10,471 nucleotides of DNA. It comes from a virus (Duplodnaviria; Heunggongvirae; Uroviricota; Caudoviricetes). This document shows, one piece after another, positions 2,725 through 10,471 of this stretch. The notes under the pieces were generated by a model that saw only the letters and a program-made list of their open reading frames with translations, was not told the DNA's origin and ran no database searches. Positions within the stretch are counted from its first letter, which is position 1. Each line of letters begins with the position of its first letter. The position numbers and the translations under genes were made by a program. The stretch spans positions 1-10,471 of the IMG/VR virus record IMGVR_UViG_2675903650_000003; one strand, 5' to 3'.

Positions 2725-3102
2725 ATGAAACTGACTCTGGATTCATTAAAACAGGCTGGTGCATTCACTGGGAGACCTGTTGAGAAGGAGATTACCTGGA
2801 AGCAGAGTGATAAGGAAATTACCGCTACCGTTTATATCCGACCTATGGGTTATCACGACGCAGTATCTACTGTTCTGTCAGCCGCGGGAAAGATTGATGG
2901 TGTTGCCGGACGTATCGCATCATCCATTTGTGATGAGAACGGGAATCCTGTTTTTACTGTTGCTGACATTACTGGTGAAGCAGACCCTGAGCGCGGTGCG
3001 CTCGACGGAAACCTTACCGTCGCTCTACTTGTCGCTATTCAGCAGGTTAACGACCTGGGAAAGACGAACTCAGCGCAGAAGACGAATTCTGGTGTGAATT
3101 AG
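2725..3102 (+). CDS. Tail assembly chaperone (lambda gpG-like), zero-frame product
   Basis: 125-aa acidic product directly upstream of the tape measure gene. RBS AAGAGAG at 2712-2718. Contains the slippery heptamer GGGAAAG near its 3' end. Confidence 0.8.
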   Translation: MKLTLDSLKQAGAFTGRPVEKEITWKQSDKEITATVYIRPMGYHDAVSTVLSAAGKIDGVAGRIASSICDENGNPVFTVADITGEADPERGALDGNLTVALLVAIQQVNDLGKTNSAQKTNSGVN

Positions 3103-3368
3103 TTCTCAACGGGATCGGCGGTCGCACCATTGCTGAAGCAAAAGAACGCGTTAGCGTTACAGAGTATCGCGACTGGGTTCTTTACCGTCAAAAGTACGGT
3201 AGCCTTAACGGAATGATGCGTACTGAGTGGGCCGCAGGCCTTATTTCTTCTGTGCTGGCTAACGTCAACCGTGGAAAAGATTCCCCCTCCTTCAAAGTAA
3301 CAGACTTCACACCACACATTAACGAGCCTTCCATTTCACTGGAGCAGGCTATGCAGGAGTGGACATAG
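2725..3368 (+). CDS. Tail assembly chaperone frameshift fusion product (lambda gpGT-like), made by -1 slip at 3057-3063
   Basis: The -1 frame (codons starting at positions divisible by 3) opens after a TAA at 3048-3050 and has no stop until TAG at 3366-3368, 2 nt before the tape measure ATG. Its translation reads ...DEFWCELVLNGIGGRTIAEAKERVSVTEYRDWVLYRQKYGSLNGMMRTEWAAGLISSVLANVNRGKDSPSFKVTDFTPHINEPSISLEQAMQEWT. No ATG-initiated + strand ORF of useful length covers 3103-3369. Confidence 0.65.
3057..3063 (+). promoter_or_regulatory. Programmed -1 ribosomal frameshift slippery heptamer G GGA AAG
   Basis: Heptamer GGGAAAG at 3057-3063 with zero-frame codons GGA (3058-3060) and AAG (3061-3063). 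This is the same heptamer as the lambda G/GT slip site. The -1 frame is open from 3051 to 3368. Confidence 0.65.
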
Positions 3369-3369
3369 C

Positions 3370-5895
3370 ATGGCTGGTAAATCCCTCGGAACGCTGACCA
3401 TTGACCTGATAGCTAAGGTTGGTGGATTTGTATCTGGTCTAAGCCAGGCTGAACGAGCATCTCAAAAATGGCGAAAACAGGTTCAGGCTGATGCAAAAGC
3501 GGCTGCGGTAGCATTTACTGGTTTTGCTACCGCGGCAAGTGCGGCAGCTATCGGTGTCGGTGTCGCCGGTTACAACCTGCTAAAAACAATGTCAAAACAG
3601 ATTACCGAAACAGACCGTTGGGCTAAGTCGCTCAATATGTCTACGCAGTCATTGCTTGCCTGGCAGTATGCAGCTGAAAAAGCTGGCGTATCCGGCGACC
3701 AGATGGCCGATATCTTCAAGGATATTGGCGATAAAATTGGCGATGCTGTACTGAATAAATCGGGTGAAGCAGTAGATGCTCTGAATGCACTCGGATTATC
3801 GGCTAAGAAATTATCCAGTGAATCACCAGATAAGCAGTTGCTGGCTATCAGCAATGCGCTCGGCAAGATTAAAACAAACGCTGAAAAGACCACAATCCTT
3901 GAAAGTCTTGGTAACGACCTTTCCAAGCTTCTCCCATTGCTTGATCAGGGAGGAGAAAAACTTCGTCAGTACATGGACGCGGCAAAACAGTTTGGCGTTG
4001 CCCCTGACGATGCTGATATCGAAAAGCTGGTAAAAGTAAACTCCCTGTTTGAGGACATGGAGACGCAGGTAAACGGTGTAAAAATTGAGATTGCCACCGG
4101 CCTGGCCAATGTTGACTTGTCAGGGTTACAGAACGCGATAACTGACATGGGGGATGTATTCAAAGATCCTCAGGTTATTCAGGGTTTGACAGACCTGGTT
4201 GGTGGTGTTGTTGATCTCGCGACCTGGCTTGTTAAAGTTGGTGCTGAAGCAGGGAAGCTAATTGACCTGTACAAAGGCGGTAAGGCTGTAGGTGACAATG
4301 CATCTGTAACTGATATAGAGCGCCGCCTCAACAATCTTAAAACTGATGTAGAAGATCAGGGATTCCTTGCCAGCTTTAACCGAATTGGTATGGACGTTGA
4401 CGGGAAAAAAGCTGAAATAGCGCAATTAGAACGCCGACTGTCCATCATGAAAGCCGGTAATAATCTTCCTCTCAGTCAGGCCACTGTAGGTGCGCCTTCT
4501 TCTTCCAGCAAAAATTATTCCTTAGGCTCAGGAGAAACTAACGGGAAAGCATCTCCAGATGCCGGGGCCAGAAAACTGGAGTCAGCATTTAAGTCTCTGG
4601 AAATGAGCTATCAGCGTCAGATAGCGCTGATTGACACAACTGGCAAAAAGAATCAGCAGGTAACCGAGCTTGAGAAGCTGCGTTTTGATTTTACATCTGG
4701 GAAATTAACAGGAATTAATGCAGCTCAGAAAGAGCGACTTGAGCAACTTGCTACTGAGATAGATCGCCTCAACTCACTTAAAAAAGCCAACGAAGAAAAT
4801 CTGAAACTTGTCGAATTTACCGCTAATTTACGTAAGCAAAATCAGAATGACCAGGCAGCTAATGATTCTGATTTTATCGGCGCAGGTATGGGAGACAAGA
4901 CTCGCCAGCGCATGAAGGAATTGCTGGATATCCATCGTAGTTTTCTCGACAGGCAGCAAGATCTACAGAAACAGTACCAAAGTGGTGATATAAGCAAATC
5001 GCTTTATGACCAGGAAACGGCAGCGTTACAGCAGGCGCTTGATGACCGTCTTGATATTCAGGAGGACTACTACAAAAAGTCTGATGCTCAGATGGGCGAC
5101 TGGCAAAGCGGGATAATGGACTCGTTGAACGATTATGCTGATAAATCAGCTGATTATTACCAGACTGCTGCAGATGCGATGACTTCTATTCTTGGTGGAG
5201 CAACCTCGGTTATTTCTGACAACCTTAATGACCTTGTGCACGGTGCAGAAGATTTAGGTGATTTCTTCAGTAATATTTTCTCTGGTCTTGGTGAAACAAT
5301 CATTAAAACCCTTTCTGATATGGCGGCGCAATGGCTGGTATATCAGGCAGTGCAATTGCTGGTAGGTAAATCCACTCAGGCAAGCGCAGCGGCATCAATG
5401 CTGGCAAACGCACAGGCATCATCTTTGCAGGCTCAAATCGCAGCATACGCATCGACAGCGGCAATTCCTATCGTTGGTCCCGCGCTTGCACCTGCAGCGA
5501 TGGCAACAGCTGCGGCAGTAACTGCACCACTTGTTGCAGCAGTTGGTACTTCTGCCCTGGCAGGTATGGCGCACGATGGTATTGATAGCGTCCCGGAAAC
5601 AGGAACATGGTTGCTCCAGAAAGGTGAGCGAGTTGTGACCTCTCAGACGTCAGCAAAGCTTGATGAAACACTGGACAGAGTAAATCAACAATCAACCAGC
5701 GGAGCAAGCTTCTCTCCCGTTATTAACATGAATGTTAACGGTGATCCGTCTGATACTCAGATCTCCATGATGAAGCAAGCCATGGCAGAGGGGGCAAAAC
5801 TTGGATATCAACAGGCAGCCAGCGACCTTGCCAGTGGGAAAGGTGACATTTCGAAAGCAATGATGCGCTGGAACACTAACAGGAGAACTGGTTAA
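3370..5895 (+). CDS. Tail tape measure protein (lambda gpH-like)
   Basis: 841-aa product. N-terminal region resembles the lambda-family tape measure domain. Long helical, coiled-coil-like middle. Ala/Gly-rich hydrophobic stretch near the C-terminus followed by WLLQKGERVV. Sits directly after G/GT and before the tail tip genes. Confidence 0.9.
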   Translation: MAGKSLGTLTIDLIAKVGGFVSGLSQAERASQKWRKQVQADAKAAAVAFTGFATAASAAAIGVGVAGYNLLKTMSKQITETDRWAKSLNMSTQSLLAWQYAAEKAGVSGDQMADIFKDIGDKIGDAVLNKSGEAVDALNALGLSAKKLSSESPDKQLLAISNALGKIKTNAEKTTILESLGNDLSKLLPLLDQGGEKLRQYMDAAKQFGVAPDDADIEKLVKVNSLFEDMETQVNGVKIEIATGLANVDLSGLQNAITDMGDVFKDPQVIQGLTDLVGGVVDLATWLVKVGAEAGKLIDLYKGGKAVGDNASVTDIERRLNNLKTDVEDQGFLASFNRIGMDVDGKKAEIAQLERRLSIMKAGNNLPLSQATVGAPSSSSKNYSLGSGETNGKASPDAGARKLESAFKSLEMSYQRQIALIDTTGKKNQQVTELEKLRFDFTSGKLTGINAAQKERLEQLATEIDRLNSLKKANEENLKLVEFTANLRKQNQNDQAANDSDFIGAGMGDKTRQRMKELLDIHRSFLDRQQDLQKQYQSGDISKSLYDQETAALQQALDDRLDIQEDYYKKSDAQMGDWQSGIMDSLNDYADKSADYYQTAADAMTSILGGATSVISDNLNDLVHGAEDLGDFFSNIFSGLGETIIKTLSDMAAQWLVYQAVQLLVGKSTQASAAASMLANAQASSLQAQIAAYASTAAIPIVGPALAPAAMATAAAVTAPLVAAVGTSALAGMAHDGIDSVPETGTWLLQKGERVVTSQTSAKLDETLDRVNQQSTSGASFSPVINMNVNGDPSDTQISMMKQAMAEGAKLGYQQAASDLASGKGDISKAMMRWNTNRRTG

Positions 5896-6368
5896 TGGCT
5901 AAAACGACCAGCATTAACTATCCGAATGATTACCTTCCTGTTCCATTGCAGGAAGGGTTCGGGTTAAAGCCAGTTAGCCCATTACTGAGAACCGAACTCA
6001 CATCCGGCAGGGCGAGGCAGAGGAGATTATATACTTCAACGCCAACTCAGGCCTCGGTTGCATGGCTGCTTACGGATCCGGAAGCTCAACTATTTGAGGT
6101 ATGGTTCAGGGACACCATTAAGGATGGCGCTGACTGGTTTAACATGCCTCTTCGATCTCCGTTAGGCGTTGTTGATGTTTATGTCTGTCGTTTCGTGGAT
6201 ATCTATGAGGGGCCGACAATTGAAGGCGGAAACTACTGGCGCTACACGGCCACGTTGGAATTGTGGGAAAGGCCTGTTCTGGCTCCTGGCTGGGCTGATT
6301 TTCCTGATTACATTATCAACAGCAGCATCATTGATATTGCGCTTAACAGGGAGTGGCCTGAGCCATGA
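5895..6368 (+). CDS. Minor tail protein, lambda gpM-like
   Basis: 157-aa product. Segment TQASVAWLLTDPEAQLFEVWFRDTIKDGADWFNMP aligns by eye with my recollection of the lambda gpM core (SVTLSVPREEATVLESFLEEHGGWKSFLWTP). TAATG overlap with the tape measure stop. First gene after the tape measure gene. Confidence 0.6.
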   Translation: MAKTTSINYPNDYLPVPLQEGFGLKPVSPLLRTELTSGRARQRRLYTSTPTQASVAWLLTDPEAQLFEVWFRDTIKDGADWFNMPLRSPLGVVDVYVCRFVDIYEGPTIEGGNYWRYTATLELWERPVLAPGWADFPDYIINSSIIDIALNREWPEP

Positions 6369-6856: not shown

Positions 6857-7237
6857 ATGTTCAATCCTGATAAATACCTTTCTGTCATATTGCAGAAGGG
6901 CGGTCGCACTTATCCTGAACTTGACTGCTTCGGCATAGTGAACGAGGTACGAAAAGACCTGGGGCTACCACTGTGGCCAGATTTTTCAGGTATAACAAAA
7001 GACGGCGGAGGTTTAAACCGAGAGGCCAGAAAGCTCATGCTTTCTCTGGAAAAATGCGCGCCGTGTATAGGTGCCGGTGCCGCCTGTTATTCCGGGTCAA
7101 CCGTTACTCATGTTGGTGTAGTCGTTGAAATTAACGGCCAATTGCATGTCGCAGAGTGCAACCCAGGAGTGAACGTTACCTTCCTTCCTGTCTCGCGTTT
7201 CAAACGTCGTTTTGTCAAAGTGGAGTTCTGGAAGTGA
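6857..7237 (+). CDS. Tail tip assembly protein with NlpC/P60-like papain-fold domain (lambda gpK-like, minimal)
   Basis: 126-aa product. LDCFGIV (Cys24, codon 6926-6928) matches the NlpC/P60 DCSG-type catalytic Cys motif. THVGVVV (His85, 7109-7111) and LHVAE (His97, 7145-7147) match the downstream His-containing motifs. Strong RBS AAGGAG at 6845-6850. Confidence 0.7.
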   Translation: MFNPDKYLSVILQKGGRTYPELDCFGIVNEVRKDLGLPLWPDFSGITKDGGGLNREARKLMLSLEKCAPCIGAGAACYSGSTVTHVGVVVEINGQLHVAECNPGVNVTFLPVSRFKRRFVKVEFWK

Positions 7238-9951
7238 CTATCAGAATTTATCCTTCACGGCTGCCTGGCGAGCCACTCGAAACTCATGAACATGGCGCAG
7301 TAACTATCCATCAGTGGCTTGCGAAGAACGTTCAGGGCTATAAGCCTGATATGAAGCACCCGATCACCGTTGATGTTGATGGAGAGAACATACCGCCTCA
7401 GGCATGGTTTGAATTTGCTATCAAATCAGACAGTGATGTCAGAATTTACCCTGTCCCTTATGGCGCTGTAGCTCTTGTCTGGATTGCCGTTGCTGTATCA
7501 GTTGCATCAGTCGCGTATGCTCTTTTCTTTGCTCCTGGTGTTGGTGACCTTGGCGGTTATTCATCAGGAACGGGAAACCCTCTTGATGTAAATCCTGCTA
7601 AAGCGAATAACGCAAAATTGGGCGACCCGATACGTGAGTTATTTGGACGAAGCCGTATTTATCCTGACTATGCAGTGCAGCCTGTAACAAGATTCTCAGT
7701 TGATGATCCAACGGTAATGACAGTTGAAATGTTTGTTGTTATGGGGAGAGGGCGTTTTTCATTTGGGGATGGCGATATTCGTGTAGGGTCAACTCCAATT
7801 GCTTCTCTTGGTGATGGGTTTAACTACACAGTGTATCAACCCGGGCAAAGCGTTAGTGGAGATCAACGATCAGAAAACTGGTTCAATTCCACAGAGGTTG
7901 GGGGAACCGCATCTGGTTCTGGTCTTGATATGGCGCAAACCGCGCCGGACACGGAAGATGTTGTTGCTAATTCGCTAACCGTTTCCGGACCAACAATAAC
8001 ATTTAATGGGCTGAGCACGGATGATGGAGATGAAACAACAAATGATCTTCCAGATACATGGACTGTTGGTGCAATTGTTGAGTTAATTGTTCCTGATTCC
8101 TATGTGGTAACTAATGATGGTGCTTACAGCAGAATTACCAGTGACACGCTGGAGGAAATAGCTCCTTATGTTGGGATGCCTGTAACTCTCTGGTACAACA
8201 GCATTGATTACCAACTATTCATTGCTGATTTTATACCTCACTCTGAGCCAGTCGGCGAAGATGTGATTACCGCATCAATAACCCTCGCTTACGATAGCGC
8301 CACTGGAACTCCGTTCACCGGGATTCCTGAAGGTTATGTCAGGCTATCTGTTTCCCATTCCGGAAGCGAATATAAGATTCTTGATATAGATGGTAGCTCT
8401 GTAACTCTGGAGCGGGTTATTGATGGCAGCGTTGATCCGTCATGGCCTGGATTTTCACCGCGCACAGTTCTTGATTTTGAAGCCAACGGTTTAAATGAGA
8501 ACGATAGTTGGATGGGACCTTTTCTGGCGTGCCCAGAAAATGAAGTTGTTGATATGTTCGAAGTAAACTTCTTCTTCCCAAACGGGATTTGTGGGTATAA
8601 CAAAAAAGGGAACAAACAATACCGTGAGGTAAAGTGGGAGATTCAGTACCGGCCATATGGTTCAGGCGTCGGGTGGATAAGTAAAACCGGATCGTACTAC
8701 CTCCAGAACATTAACGGACTGGGATTTACCGAAAGAATCACGCTGGATACGCCTGCGCTAGTAGAGGTGAGAGCTCGCCGCACGAACGAGCAGGGACAGA
8801 ATAACAGTCGCGATAACATGTACTGGCAGTCATTGCGAGGACGTTTGTTGTCACGGCCAGCATCGTATACTGGCGTCACCACAATTGCGGTTACTGTGGA
8901 AACTGGCGGTAAACTGGCAGCGCAGTCAGATCGCCGCGTAAACGTTGTAGCCACGCGAGTTTATGATTCTGGTGTGTCAAGGAGCATTTCTGGTGCTCTG
9001 TATCATATAGGTAATGAGTTGGGGCTAGCGATGGACCGTGAAGCTATTGACTCACTAGAAACTACTTACTGGACCCCTGGCAGTGAATTCTTTGACTATG
9101 CCACTACGGATTCTGTTTCTGCGCTGGAGATGCTTCAGAAGGTGACAAATGCAGGAAAAAGTTACTTCCTTCTTACCGATGGTCTGGCATCTGTAGCAAG
9201 GGAAGGTGTGAAAACGTGGACTGGAATAATCAGCCCACAGGAGATGACTGATCCGCTTCAGACTGCTTTCGTTGCTCCGTCAGCAGATGACTATGATGGT
9301 GTGGATGTTACATATATCAACGGCACTACATGGGCTGAAGAGACGGTGCAGTGCAGAACATCAGATAACCCAACTCCGGTAAAGATTGAGGACTATACGC
9401 TTGATGGTGTTCTTGACCAGGACCGTGCTTATCAGATAGGTATGCGACGTCTGATGAAGTACCTTCAGCAACGTTTGACTCATACCACAACAACGGAAAT
9501 GGATGCTCTCTGTTATAACGTTGGCGACAGGGTAGTATTCACGGATGATATTCCTGGTAGCAAAACAATAAGCACGTTGATTGAGGATATGAGTACAAGT
9601 GATGGCGTAACGACTATTACAGTATCAGAACCACTTGACTGGACATTCAACAACCCACGTGCATTGATACGCTATCAGGATGGTTCTGCTTCGGATTTGC
9701 TGGCAGCTACAAGGGTAAATGAATATGTTCTATCAGTAATAGAACAAGCAAAATTCAGCAATATCATGCTAAACGCCCCATCCATTGAATCGCCTCGTCT
9801 GATTTTCTGCGAGTCATCCCGTGTTGGATATAGCGCATTAATTTCAGAGATAGCACCGCAATCTGATGGAACATGTCAGGTAACGGCAAAAGAGTATCGC
9901 GACACTTTCTATCAGTACGATAACGCTACCTACCCCGGCAATGTAGCTTAA
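7234..9951 (+). CDS. Tail tip protein: lambda gpI-like N-terminal region fused in frame to a gpJ-like central tail fibre / host specificity protein
   Basis: Probable GTG start at 7234, overlapping the upstream stop (GTGA) with GGAG at 7222-7225. The track's ATG at 7156 lies inside the K-like gene. Residues 1-80 look ubiquitin-like, followed by a hydrophobic segment GAVALVWIAVAVSVASVAYALFFAPGV (about 7462-7545), then NNAKLGDPIRELFGRSRIY, which resembles lambda gpI (NVLPVLYGEMRVGS). The rest is a long beta-rich protein with J-like motifs (RRTNEQGQNNSRDNMYWQSLRGRLL). No stop codon separates the two parts. Confidence 0.7.
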   Translation: MTIRIYPSRLPGEPLETHEHGAVTIHQWLAKNVQGYKPDMKHPITVDVDGENIPPQAWFEFAIKSDSDVRIYPVPYGAVALVWIAVAVSVASVAYALFFAPGVGDLGGYSSGTGNPLDVNPAKANNAKLGDPIRELFGRSRIYPDYAVQPVTRFSVDDPTVMTVEMFVVMGRGRFSFGDGDIRVGSTPIASLGDGFNYTVYQPGQSVSGDQRSENWFNSTEVGGTASGSGLDMAQTAPDTEDVVANSLTVSGPTITFNGLSTDDGDETTNDLPDTWTVGAIVELIVPDSYVVTNDGAYSRITSDTLEEIAPYVGMPVTLWYNSIDYQLFIADFIPHSEPVGEDVITASITLAYDSATGTPFTGIPEGYVRLSVSHSGSEYKILDIDGSSVTLERVIDGSVDPSWPGFSPRTVLDFEANGLNENDSWMGPFLACPENEVVDMFEVNFFFPNGICGYNKKGNKQYREVKWEIQYRPYGSGVGWISKTGSYYLQNINGLGFTERITLDTPALVEVRARRTNEQGQNNSRDNMYWQSLRGRLLSRPASYTGVTTIAVTVETGGKLAAQSDRRVNVVATRVYDSGVSRSISGALYHIGNELGLAMDREAIDSLETTYWTPGSEFFDYATTDSVSALEMLQKVTNAGKSYFLLTDGLASVAREGVKTWTGIISPQEMTDPLQTAFVAPSADDYDGVDVTYINGTTWAEETVQCRTSDNPTPVKIEDYTLDGVLDQDRAYQIGMRRLMKYLQQRLTHTTTTEMDALCYNVGDRVVFTDDIPGSKTISTLIEDMSTSDGVTTITVSEPLDWTFNNPRALIRYQDGSASDLLAATRVNEYVLSVIEQAKFSNIMLNAPSIESPRLIFCESSRVGYSALISEIAPQSDGTCQVTAKEYRDTFYQYDNATYPGNVA

Positions 9952-9967
9952 TCCAAACATCAATATT

Positions 9968-9992
9968 ACCCGCTACGGCGGGTTTTTCTCTT
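9968..9992 (+). terminator. Rho-independent terminator downstream of the I/J-like gene
   Basis: Stem ACCCGC (9968-9973) / GCGGGT (9978-9983) with loop TACG, followed by TTTTTCTCTT. Next gene has GAGG at 9995-9998 and ATG at 10004. Confidence 0.6.
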
Positions 9993-10003
9993 ATGAGGCA
10001 AAT

Positions 10004-10465
10004 ATGACGACTTATAATACTGGCAATCCGCTGGGGTCTTCTGCTGCAAAAGATTTGTACGATAACGCCCAGAACTTCGATCATCTTTCTAATGATCAAT
10101 CCAATGAGTTATGGCCTGATCGTTTTGGTAATCCACGTCTTACTTGGCATGGTATGGAGTCAAAGTACAAAGAATCATTGTCAAAAATGGGTTGGATACT
10201 AATAAAATCATTTCAGGTTGGCGCAGAGATAACCTTGACTAATCAGGCATTGCACGACGAAACCTCTGGCGAGTATTACCGTTGGGATGGTGTATTACCT
10301 AAAACCGTTCCTGCTGGCTCTACGCCAGAAACGACAGGTGGGATTGGATTAGGTGCGTGGGTTAGCGTGGGTGATGCTTCATTGCGTGGAGATCTACTCA
10401 GCTTAGATGGTGAAAAATATATCGGTATCTGTCCTGACATTGCGGTGATGCTGCCAACTTACTGA
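10004..10465 (+). CDS. Hypothetical protein resembling the N-terminal anchor region of a tail fibre or tailspike (153 aa)
   Basis: Good RBS and ATG. AT-rich relative to upstream genes. Motifs GNPLGSSAAKDLYDNAQNFDHLSN and GIGLGAWVSVGDASLRGDLLS are reminiscent of N-terminal adaptor regions of phage fibres or spikes, but this is recalled similarity, not verified. In-frame TGA at 10463-10465, only 6 nt before the window ends. Confidence 0.5.
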   Translation: MTTYNTGNPLGSSAAKDLYDNAQNFDHLSNDQSNELWPDRFGNPRLTWHGMESKYKESLSKMGWILIKSFQVGAEITLTNQALHDETSGEYYRWDGVLPKTVPAGSTPETTGGIGLGAWVSVGDASLRGDLLSLDGEKYIGICPDIAVMLPTY

Positions 10466-10471
10466 TTTAGT

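Follow-up and report, generated by a model that had tools for sequence, protein, structure and literature searches.

The stretch of DNA analyzed here (10,471 nucleotides; hereafter the window) is part of what is left of an E. coli prophage at the glyW-cysT-leuZ tRNA locus, and it is exactly the unique DNA between two insertion sequences, an IS100 on the left and an IS1 on the right. Positions 1-28 are the end of the IS100 copy (IS21 family), which bounds the unique DNA on the left and explains why the contig starts there. The match to RefSeq records annotating the istA and istB genes of IS100 ends at nucleotides 28-30, and in the complete chromosome CP061272.1 an IstB_IS21 gene ends just upstream of the window. 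Farther upstream in that chromosome (locus L007, 6600-9978) are pgsA, the genes for tRNA-Gly, tRNA-Cys, and tRNA-Leu, an integrase remnant, and the IS100. The window is a short-read contig whose two ends fall in repeated insertion sequences, hence its start at the IS100 end and its stop at the IS1. The prophage remnant is without integrase, regulatory, lysis, packaging, and capsid genes, everything to the left of the head–tail connector genes having been lost. Downstream of the tailspike gene at the right end of the window, the complete chromosomes carry a gene for a 653-aa acyltransferase (Acyl_transf_3/SGNH) on the opposite strand and dinI, followed by the host genes yecA, tyrP, and ftnA.

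The tail genes run in the order tape measure (841 aa), a 157-aa distal-tail-like protein (5895-6368), a DUF1833 protein (160 aa), a 126-aa protein, a 905-aa TipJ-like hub, and the tailspike. The TipJ-like gene (7234-9951, plus strand), which directly precedes the tailspike, has Pfam matches to FNIII-A_GpJ and Phage-tail_3 and matches the tail protein family PHROG 469 at an E value of 1e-263; its annotation in RefSeq relatives reads “host specificity factor TipJ family protein.” A mechanical ORF call starts this gene at a GTG at 7156 (931 aa, with an 82-nt overlap with the preceding gene), while gene callers and the RefSeq relatives start it at the ATG at 7234 (905 aa, 4-nt overlap). The 126-aa tail gene (6857-7237) matches a PHROG minor tail protein and, weakly, a CHAP-like Pfam family. 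The RefSeq record of a related prophage in E. coli strain TST3 names its counterpart “nitrite transporter,” which is probably a misannotation. Toward the left of the window, a tail assembly chaperone gene (Phage_TAC_13; 2725-3102) precedes a small ORF that weakly matches Phage_tail_T (3213-3368); together they resemble the G/GT-type programmed frameshift pair that usually precedes the tape measure gene.

Between the stop of the TipJ-like gene at 9951 and the next ORF lies an intrinsic-terminator-like hairpin with a U-run (9968-9992, plus strand). Its stem pairs 9968-9973 with 9978-9983 around a UACG loop (ACCCGC-UACG-GCGGGU), and UUUUUCUCUU follows. The earlier note on this DNA had placed a terminator after an I/J-like gene, and the analysis agrees; the hairpin has a free energy of -11.8 kcal/mol (z = -5.0; none of 200 shuffled sequences folds as well) and is the sole terminator-like site found within 9000-10471. 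The description of the following gene as “terminator-isolated” did not hold up, as the hairpin is conserved together with the upstream TipJ-like gene, in identical form, in the TST3 prophage, the closest relative, and is no proof of isolation. Strain 23CRST032 has a weaker hairpin at the same place before the U-run, one that folds no better than shuffled sequence. The terminator is part of the conserved junction of the TipJ-like gene and the tailspike. Because it is located on the conserved side of the recombination boundary described below, it does not delimit the exchanged cassette. In lambdoid phages, antitermination lets late transcription pass such sites, so a gene behind one is not necessarily isolated.

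The ORF that follows (10004-10465) starts with ATG, has 153 codons, and ends in TGA with 6 nt left to the end of the window. A ribosome-binding site (GAGG, 9995-9998, plus strand), read directly from the sequence, stands 5 nt before the ATG. The ORF had been called clearly more AT-rich on the basis of two hand counts, both of which are right (38.3% G+C at 10121-10240 and 57.5% at 5401-5520). These two 120-nt samples are near-extreme, given that segments of this length span 35.8-60.8% G+C and the whole tape measure gene has 47.1%; the word “clearly” is lost and a modest, real AT-richness is kept. The phage-derived part of the ORF has 44.1% G+C versus 47.6% for the window, a value that about 11% of same-sized segments equal or fall below, and the ORF has the lowest GC (44.1%) and GC3 (36.3%) among the window's 13 genes. 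G+C keeps dropping in the 3′ direction, to 42.0% in the rest of the tailspike gene and 32.5% in the acyltransferase gene. The compositional signal is thus modest but real. Low G+C was also considered as a marker of a recombination boundary and was rejected; the anchor region that is co-inherited with the tail genes itself has 42.9% G+C.

Three modules can be distinguished in the phage-derived part of the ORF. The first (codons 1-60; 10004-10183, plus strand) is a virion-anchor module, and the N-terminal 135 residues of the product are 48% identical to gp13, the tailspike of the Shigella siphophage Sf11 (BLASTP, E = 8e-39). The second is a Tail_spike_N domain (PF18668; codons 69-124; 10208-10375, plus strand), a widely shared linker, found with a Pfam E value of 7e-21 and a score of 74.5 bits against a Pfam cut-off of 25. 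This domain also matches TSP1, TSP3, and TSP4 of phage CBA120 in the PDB. The third consists of the first 13 or so codons of a receptor-binding beta-helix cassette (aa 134-146; 10403-10443, plus strand), the last phage-derived DNA before the gene breaks off. The fiber- or spike-like character that the earlier note had read from the N-terminus is confirmed by the Tail_spike_N match and by PHROG, in which 43 families match and the best 25 of the 43 are tail fiber, spike, or virion proteins of about 340-1170 aa, matched mostly near their N-termini. An NCBIfam search returned no match for the ORF.

Comparison with relatives places the modules on different histories. Residues 1-52 are 100% identical to those of the TST3 prophage tailspike, whose receptor-binding part is unrelated to that of the window gene. 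At the DNA level, 90-100% of positions agree with TST3 in the TipJ-like gene, the terminator, and codons 1 to about 50 (to about nt 10150); identity falls to 55-72% across Tail_spike_N and is at random level beyond about nt 10380. From DGEKYIGICPD (aa 134) onward, the protein is instead nearly identical, over about aa 134-330, to P0027, an E. coli tailspike that has a P22-type head-binding domain as its anchor. With an anchor in common with TST3 and a cassette from about aa 134 in common with P0027, the proposal that an exchangeable receptor-binding cassette starts here is correct, and the cassette starts about 13 codons before the break. Within Tail_spike_N, positions 10267-10386 have 82-83% DNA identity to endosialidase/tailspike genes of K1F-like podophages (Kayfunavirus) and also to a Dickeya phage. 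This unusually high DNA conservation of the linker across unrelated virion types suggests that it serves as a recombination joint. The locus displays the modularity of tailspikes cleanly: an anchor (aa 1-52) that moves with the tail genes, Tail_spike_N as a shared joint, and a beta-helix cassette from about aa 134 that is also mounted on P22-type anchors.

The tailspike allele of the window is absent from RefSeq complete E. coli genomes, in which the best matches are 87-95% identical and end at about nt 10159; the receptor-binding part has partial matches in only four of these genomes, at 87-88% identity. When the region and the whole window were compared by megablast with 50,697 phage records, no close phage was found, the matches being limited to a 112-120-nt piece of Tail_spike_N shared with K1F-like podophages and, at 72%, the HK022-like major tail region.

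The reason that the ORF ends where it does is found in its last codons. The window closes with 28 nt (10444-10471, plus strand; GGTGATGCTGCCAACTTACTGATTTAGT) that match, base for base, the beginning of a complete 768-bp IS1 found in two complete E. coli chromosomes, CP061272.1 (locus L001) and CP091394.1 (locus L002); they are nt 1-28 of its left inverted repeat. Consequently, codons 147-153 (A-V-M-L-P-T-Y) and the TGA are IS1 sequence, the stop at 10463-10465 corresponding to IS1 nt 20-22. The full element, with both inverted repeats, occupies 10441-11208 of L001 and L002 (window position 10444 onward), and the gene directly after the junction in L002 has Zn_ribbon_InsA, HTH_Tnp_IS1, and DDE_Tnp_IS1 domains. 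E. coli genomes contain matches to the last 45 or so nucleotides of the window at many unrelated sites. A target-site duplication flanks the element, with the left copy, GACATTGC, at 10436-10443 (plus strand) and the right copy, GACATTGA, directly after the IS1 in L001 and L002. The duplication is 8 bp long with 7 of 8 positions matching; counting the first G of the inverted repeat as part of the target makes it 9 bp. Because the copies differ by one base (C versus A), this is not a flawless textbook insertion; the simplest account would be a point mutation acquired later by the pseudogene. The duplication is perfect and 9 bp long (TTTGAGGCT) around a second IS1 in L002 (17082-17849, between yecA and tyrP), which serves as a control and is 767/768 identical to the first. 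Mechanistically, nothing sets this case apart from the canonical disruption of genes by IS1 in E. coli and Shigella, with its 768-bp element, inverted repeats, InsA and InsB domains, and 8- or 9-bp target duplication; only the one duplication base differs. The two IS1 copies are in direct orientation and 6.6 kb apart, and they could mediate deletion of the 3′ tailspike fragment, the acyltransferase gene, dinI, and yecA.

The same junction recurs in public data. The exact 153-aa protein occurs on 129 contigs and in 168 blocks of public assemblies, among them CP061272.1, CP091394.1, and a Logan contig of 10,472 nt that is nearly identical to the window (three mismatches). In addition, many database entries stop at 145-146 aa and are labeled “partial”; they lie where contigs of about 10.4 kb end, as expected because assemblers break at IS1. 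The 153-aa ORF goes under unremarkable names in public databases, “hypothetical” protein or “tail fiber/spike domain-containing” protein, and such labels mask the IS1 origin of seven residues and the stop. Where an ORF from short-read data ends a few bases from the end of a contig, insertion-sequence termini should be checked for before the ORF is interpreted. We found no papers naming the accession numbers, and literature searches on IS1 together with tailspikes yielded nothing specific.

When the IS1 and one 8-nt copy of the duplication (776 nt in all) are excised in silico from L002, an uninterrupted ORF of 613 codons results. A beta-helix following Tail_spike_N in the same polypeptide, absent from the ORF in the window, is present in this 613-aa restored protein; the DNA after the IS1 continues the tailspike gene in frame, encoding a beta-helix, and is not an unrelated gene. 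Searched against a Pfam set without PF27114, the restored protein matches only Tail_spike_N, while homologues carry PF27114 (Phage_tail_beta) C-terminal to that domain. Uninterrupted versions of the site are seen in two other E. coli sequences. In PNRY01000005.1 (L004), the empty site reads CCTGACGTTGCGACACTAAGA, encoding PDVATLRT within ICPDVATLRTIEP. The partial protein P0135 has the same first 144 residues and then PDVATLRTIEP..., i.e., it reads straight through. The L004 copy of the gene has been hit independently at about codon 64 by an IS3-family element (L004 700-760), which by its terminal repeat we take to be IS2-like. This insertion leaves a 557-aa ORF (P0001) with an IS-derived N-terminus, MSGNIGANP, and P0001 likewise has no NCBIfam match. 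The same tailspike gene has thus been struck twice, by different insertion sequences in different strains.

Taken together, these data make it almost certain that a simple IS1 insertion behind codon 146 inactivated a tailspike gene some 613 codons long and that the 153-codon ORF is its 5′ fragment. The reading frame runs seven codons into the inverted repeat of the element and meets a TGA there; in complete genomes, the remainder of the IS1 and then the in-frame rest of the gene follow. The earlier note had left three options: a small adaptor, an N-terminal fragment of a receptor-binding protein split by a frameshift or nonsense mutation, and the edge of an exchanged module. The N-terminal fragment is the correct one of these, and the cause of the split has to be replaced by the IS1, whose inverted repeat supplies the last seven codons and the stop. 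Since the remnant has lost everything upstream of the head–tail connector genes, the fragment would be a non-functional relic, presumably carried clonally in one E. coli lineage.

A different reading of the same fragment is that the truncated product, with its docking helices and Tail_spike_N and no beta-helix, is expressed and has been kept as something useful, e.g., as a dominant-negative decoy. Were this so, it would cap docking sites on superinfecting siphophages with the same anchor and give the host a cheap form of superinfection interference. The docking helices are complete, the ribosome-binding site has been kept, the allele is widespread in a lineage (the 129 contigs mentioned above), and related prophages with a 100% identical anchor over aa 1-52 mean that a decoy would have targets. 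However, the regulatory and late-promoter region of the remnant has been lost to IS100, no sigma-70-like promoter was found on the plus strand in 9000-10471, and the terminator is directly upstream. The wide distribution is accounted for by clonal descent, and the independent IS3-family insertion in the same gene of another strain fits neutral decay. In addition, trimerization of tailspikes usually requires their C-terminal part. We therefore consider a retained decoy very improbable.

A complete stand-alone adaptor, docking separate fibers or spikes on the tail, is harder still to reconcile with the data, although the fragment does hold the whole anchor and the whole Tail_spike_N and has its own ribosome-binding site with a terminator before it. 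The last seven codons and the stop of such an adaptor would have to be the inverted repeat of an IS1, and the empty-site alleles read straight on. Homologues with the same N-terminus are 340-870 aa long, the full-length ones with Tail_spike_N and Phage_tail_beta being 600-800 aa, and no homologue of about 150 aa with a native C-terminus is found among 1132 homologues. The cluster of the 153-aa product itself contains only copies of the same truncated allele and partial sequences from contig ends. We give this option practically no credence.

Equally negligible is the possibility that a point mutation (nonsense or frameshift) or an assembly error, and not a mobile element, split the gene: extra 3′ indels in CP061272.1 relative to CP091394.1 attest that small lesions or sequencing errors occur in this region, but the break matches the IS1 end to the base, two independent complete genomes and the 168 collection blocks share the junction, and removal of the 776 nt restores the frame. 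The indels in question are two in number, lie in the 3′ tailspike fragment (L001 11209-12621), and produce ORFs of 194 and 127 aa. The acyltransferase gene of the same chromosome (L001 12680-14640) is split into four ORFs, and the extra indels of CP061272.1 may be sequencing or consensus errors or further decay.

With the IS1-inactivated tailspike as the preferred reading, the role of the intact protein can be approached through its homologues. By homology, it would be a trimeric tailspike, and Sf11 offers the closest parallel for its attachment. In a phmmer search of the PDB, the best match is 9occ_G (the Sf11 gp13 structure, PDB 9OCC), with aa 1-138 aligned to 1-137 at E = 3.6e-33. The gene order is that of gp18, gp17, gp16, gp14, and gp13 in Sf11 (tape measure, distal tail protein, small hub protein, large hub protein, and tailspike), in which the tailspike likewise directly follows the large baseplate hub gene. 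The TipJ-like protein has distant homology to the Sf11 baseplate hub gp14 (E = 1e-14), and aa 7-112 of the 157-aa protein align to aa 4-110 of gp17 (E = 2e-5). In the cryo-EM structure of Sf11, residues 4-59 of gp13 are helices docking on the distal tail protein; three gp13 helices bundle with one adaptor helix of gp17, and six tailspike trimers sit on the siphophage tail tip (PMC12724387). By analogy, the anchor probably works in the same way here: helices at the N-terminus (about aa 1-60) would dock at the tail tip by joining a helix of the distal tail protein in a bundle, and six trimers would decorate the tip of the siphophage tail. The last residues of the 157-aa protein are DIALNREWP, and Sf11 gp17 has DEVVNRELP inside its adaptor helix (Glu129-Glu152). 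This likeness is not significant, as 258 of 2000 shuffles reach its score, and docking on the distal tail protein consequently remains a matter of inference.

There are also differences from Sf11. Of the gp13 contact residues described in PMC12724387, the salt-bridge residue Arg16 is Lys here, a conservative change, whereas Lys19 is Tyr and is not conserved. The receptor-binding parts are unrelated in sequence (the match to the second domain is not significant), and the distal tail protein has 157 aa here compared with 457 aa in Sf11, without the large C-terminal appendage. Sf11 is a lytic phage, while the gene studied here is an IS1-interrupted copy in a defective prophage.

Beyond the anchor, Tail_spike_N (aa 69-124) may act as a neck or linker in addition to its proposed part as a recombination joint. 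The rest of the intact protein, from about aa 134 to 613, is predicted by homology to be a parallel beta-helix for which a surface polysaccharide, most likely O-antigen, would be both ligand and substrate for cleavage. The AlphaFold model of P0002, a 617-aa homologue that is 66% identical to the restored protein, has a long parallel beta-helix from about residue 240 (mean pLDDT 83, modeled as a monomer). In a Foldseek search of the PDB with this model, the best matches were CBA120 TSP4, TSP2, and TSP3 and tailspike depolymerases of Acinetobacter and Klebsiella phages, with E values of 1e-16 to 1e-9. We infer from this model that the intact protein was a polysaccharide-specific tailspike depolymerase, probably directed at O-antigen.

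The likeness to CBA120 (Ackermannviridae) should be read together with what separates the two systems. Both have Tail_spike_N, and the modeled beta-helix of the full-length homologue is closest to CBA120 TSP4, TSP2, and TSP3. However, the CBA120 spikes attach to one another and form a branched complex on a myophage baseplate by means of other N-terminal domains, and sequence identity within the beta-helix is only 15-17%. The P22-type tailspikes of E. coli prophages (PF09008 with Phage_tail_beta, PF27114), such as P0027, are nearer in the receptor-binding part, with 61% identity over aa 123-613. These proteins have a podophage head-binding anchor, in contrast to the siphophage anchor and Tail_spike_N of the gene studied here, and the P22 head-binding domain PF09008 has no match in the ORF or in the restored protein. 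The same cassette is thus mounted on a different type of virion.

As an insertion-sequence pseudogene in a decaying E. coli prophage, the ORF is of little importance in itself and is a further example of two well-known things, the modular tailspike and gene inactivation by an insertion sequence. One feature of its surroundings may be added. The acyltransferase gene (L002 12682-14643, minus strand) is arranged tail-to-tail with the tailspike gene, with dinI next to it. In related prophages with a different receptor-binding domain, a gene with a glucosyltransferase domain takes its place (L009 and L010), and the tailspike cassette and this putative O-antigen-modification gene seem to be swapped together.
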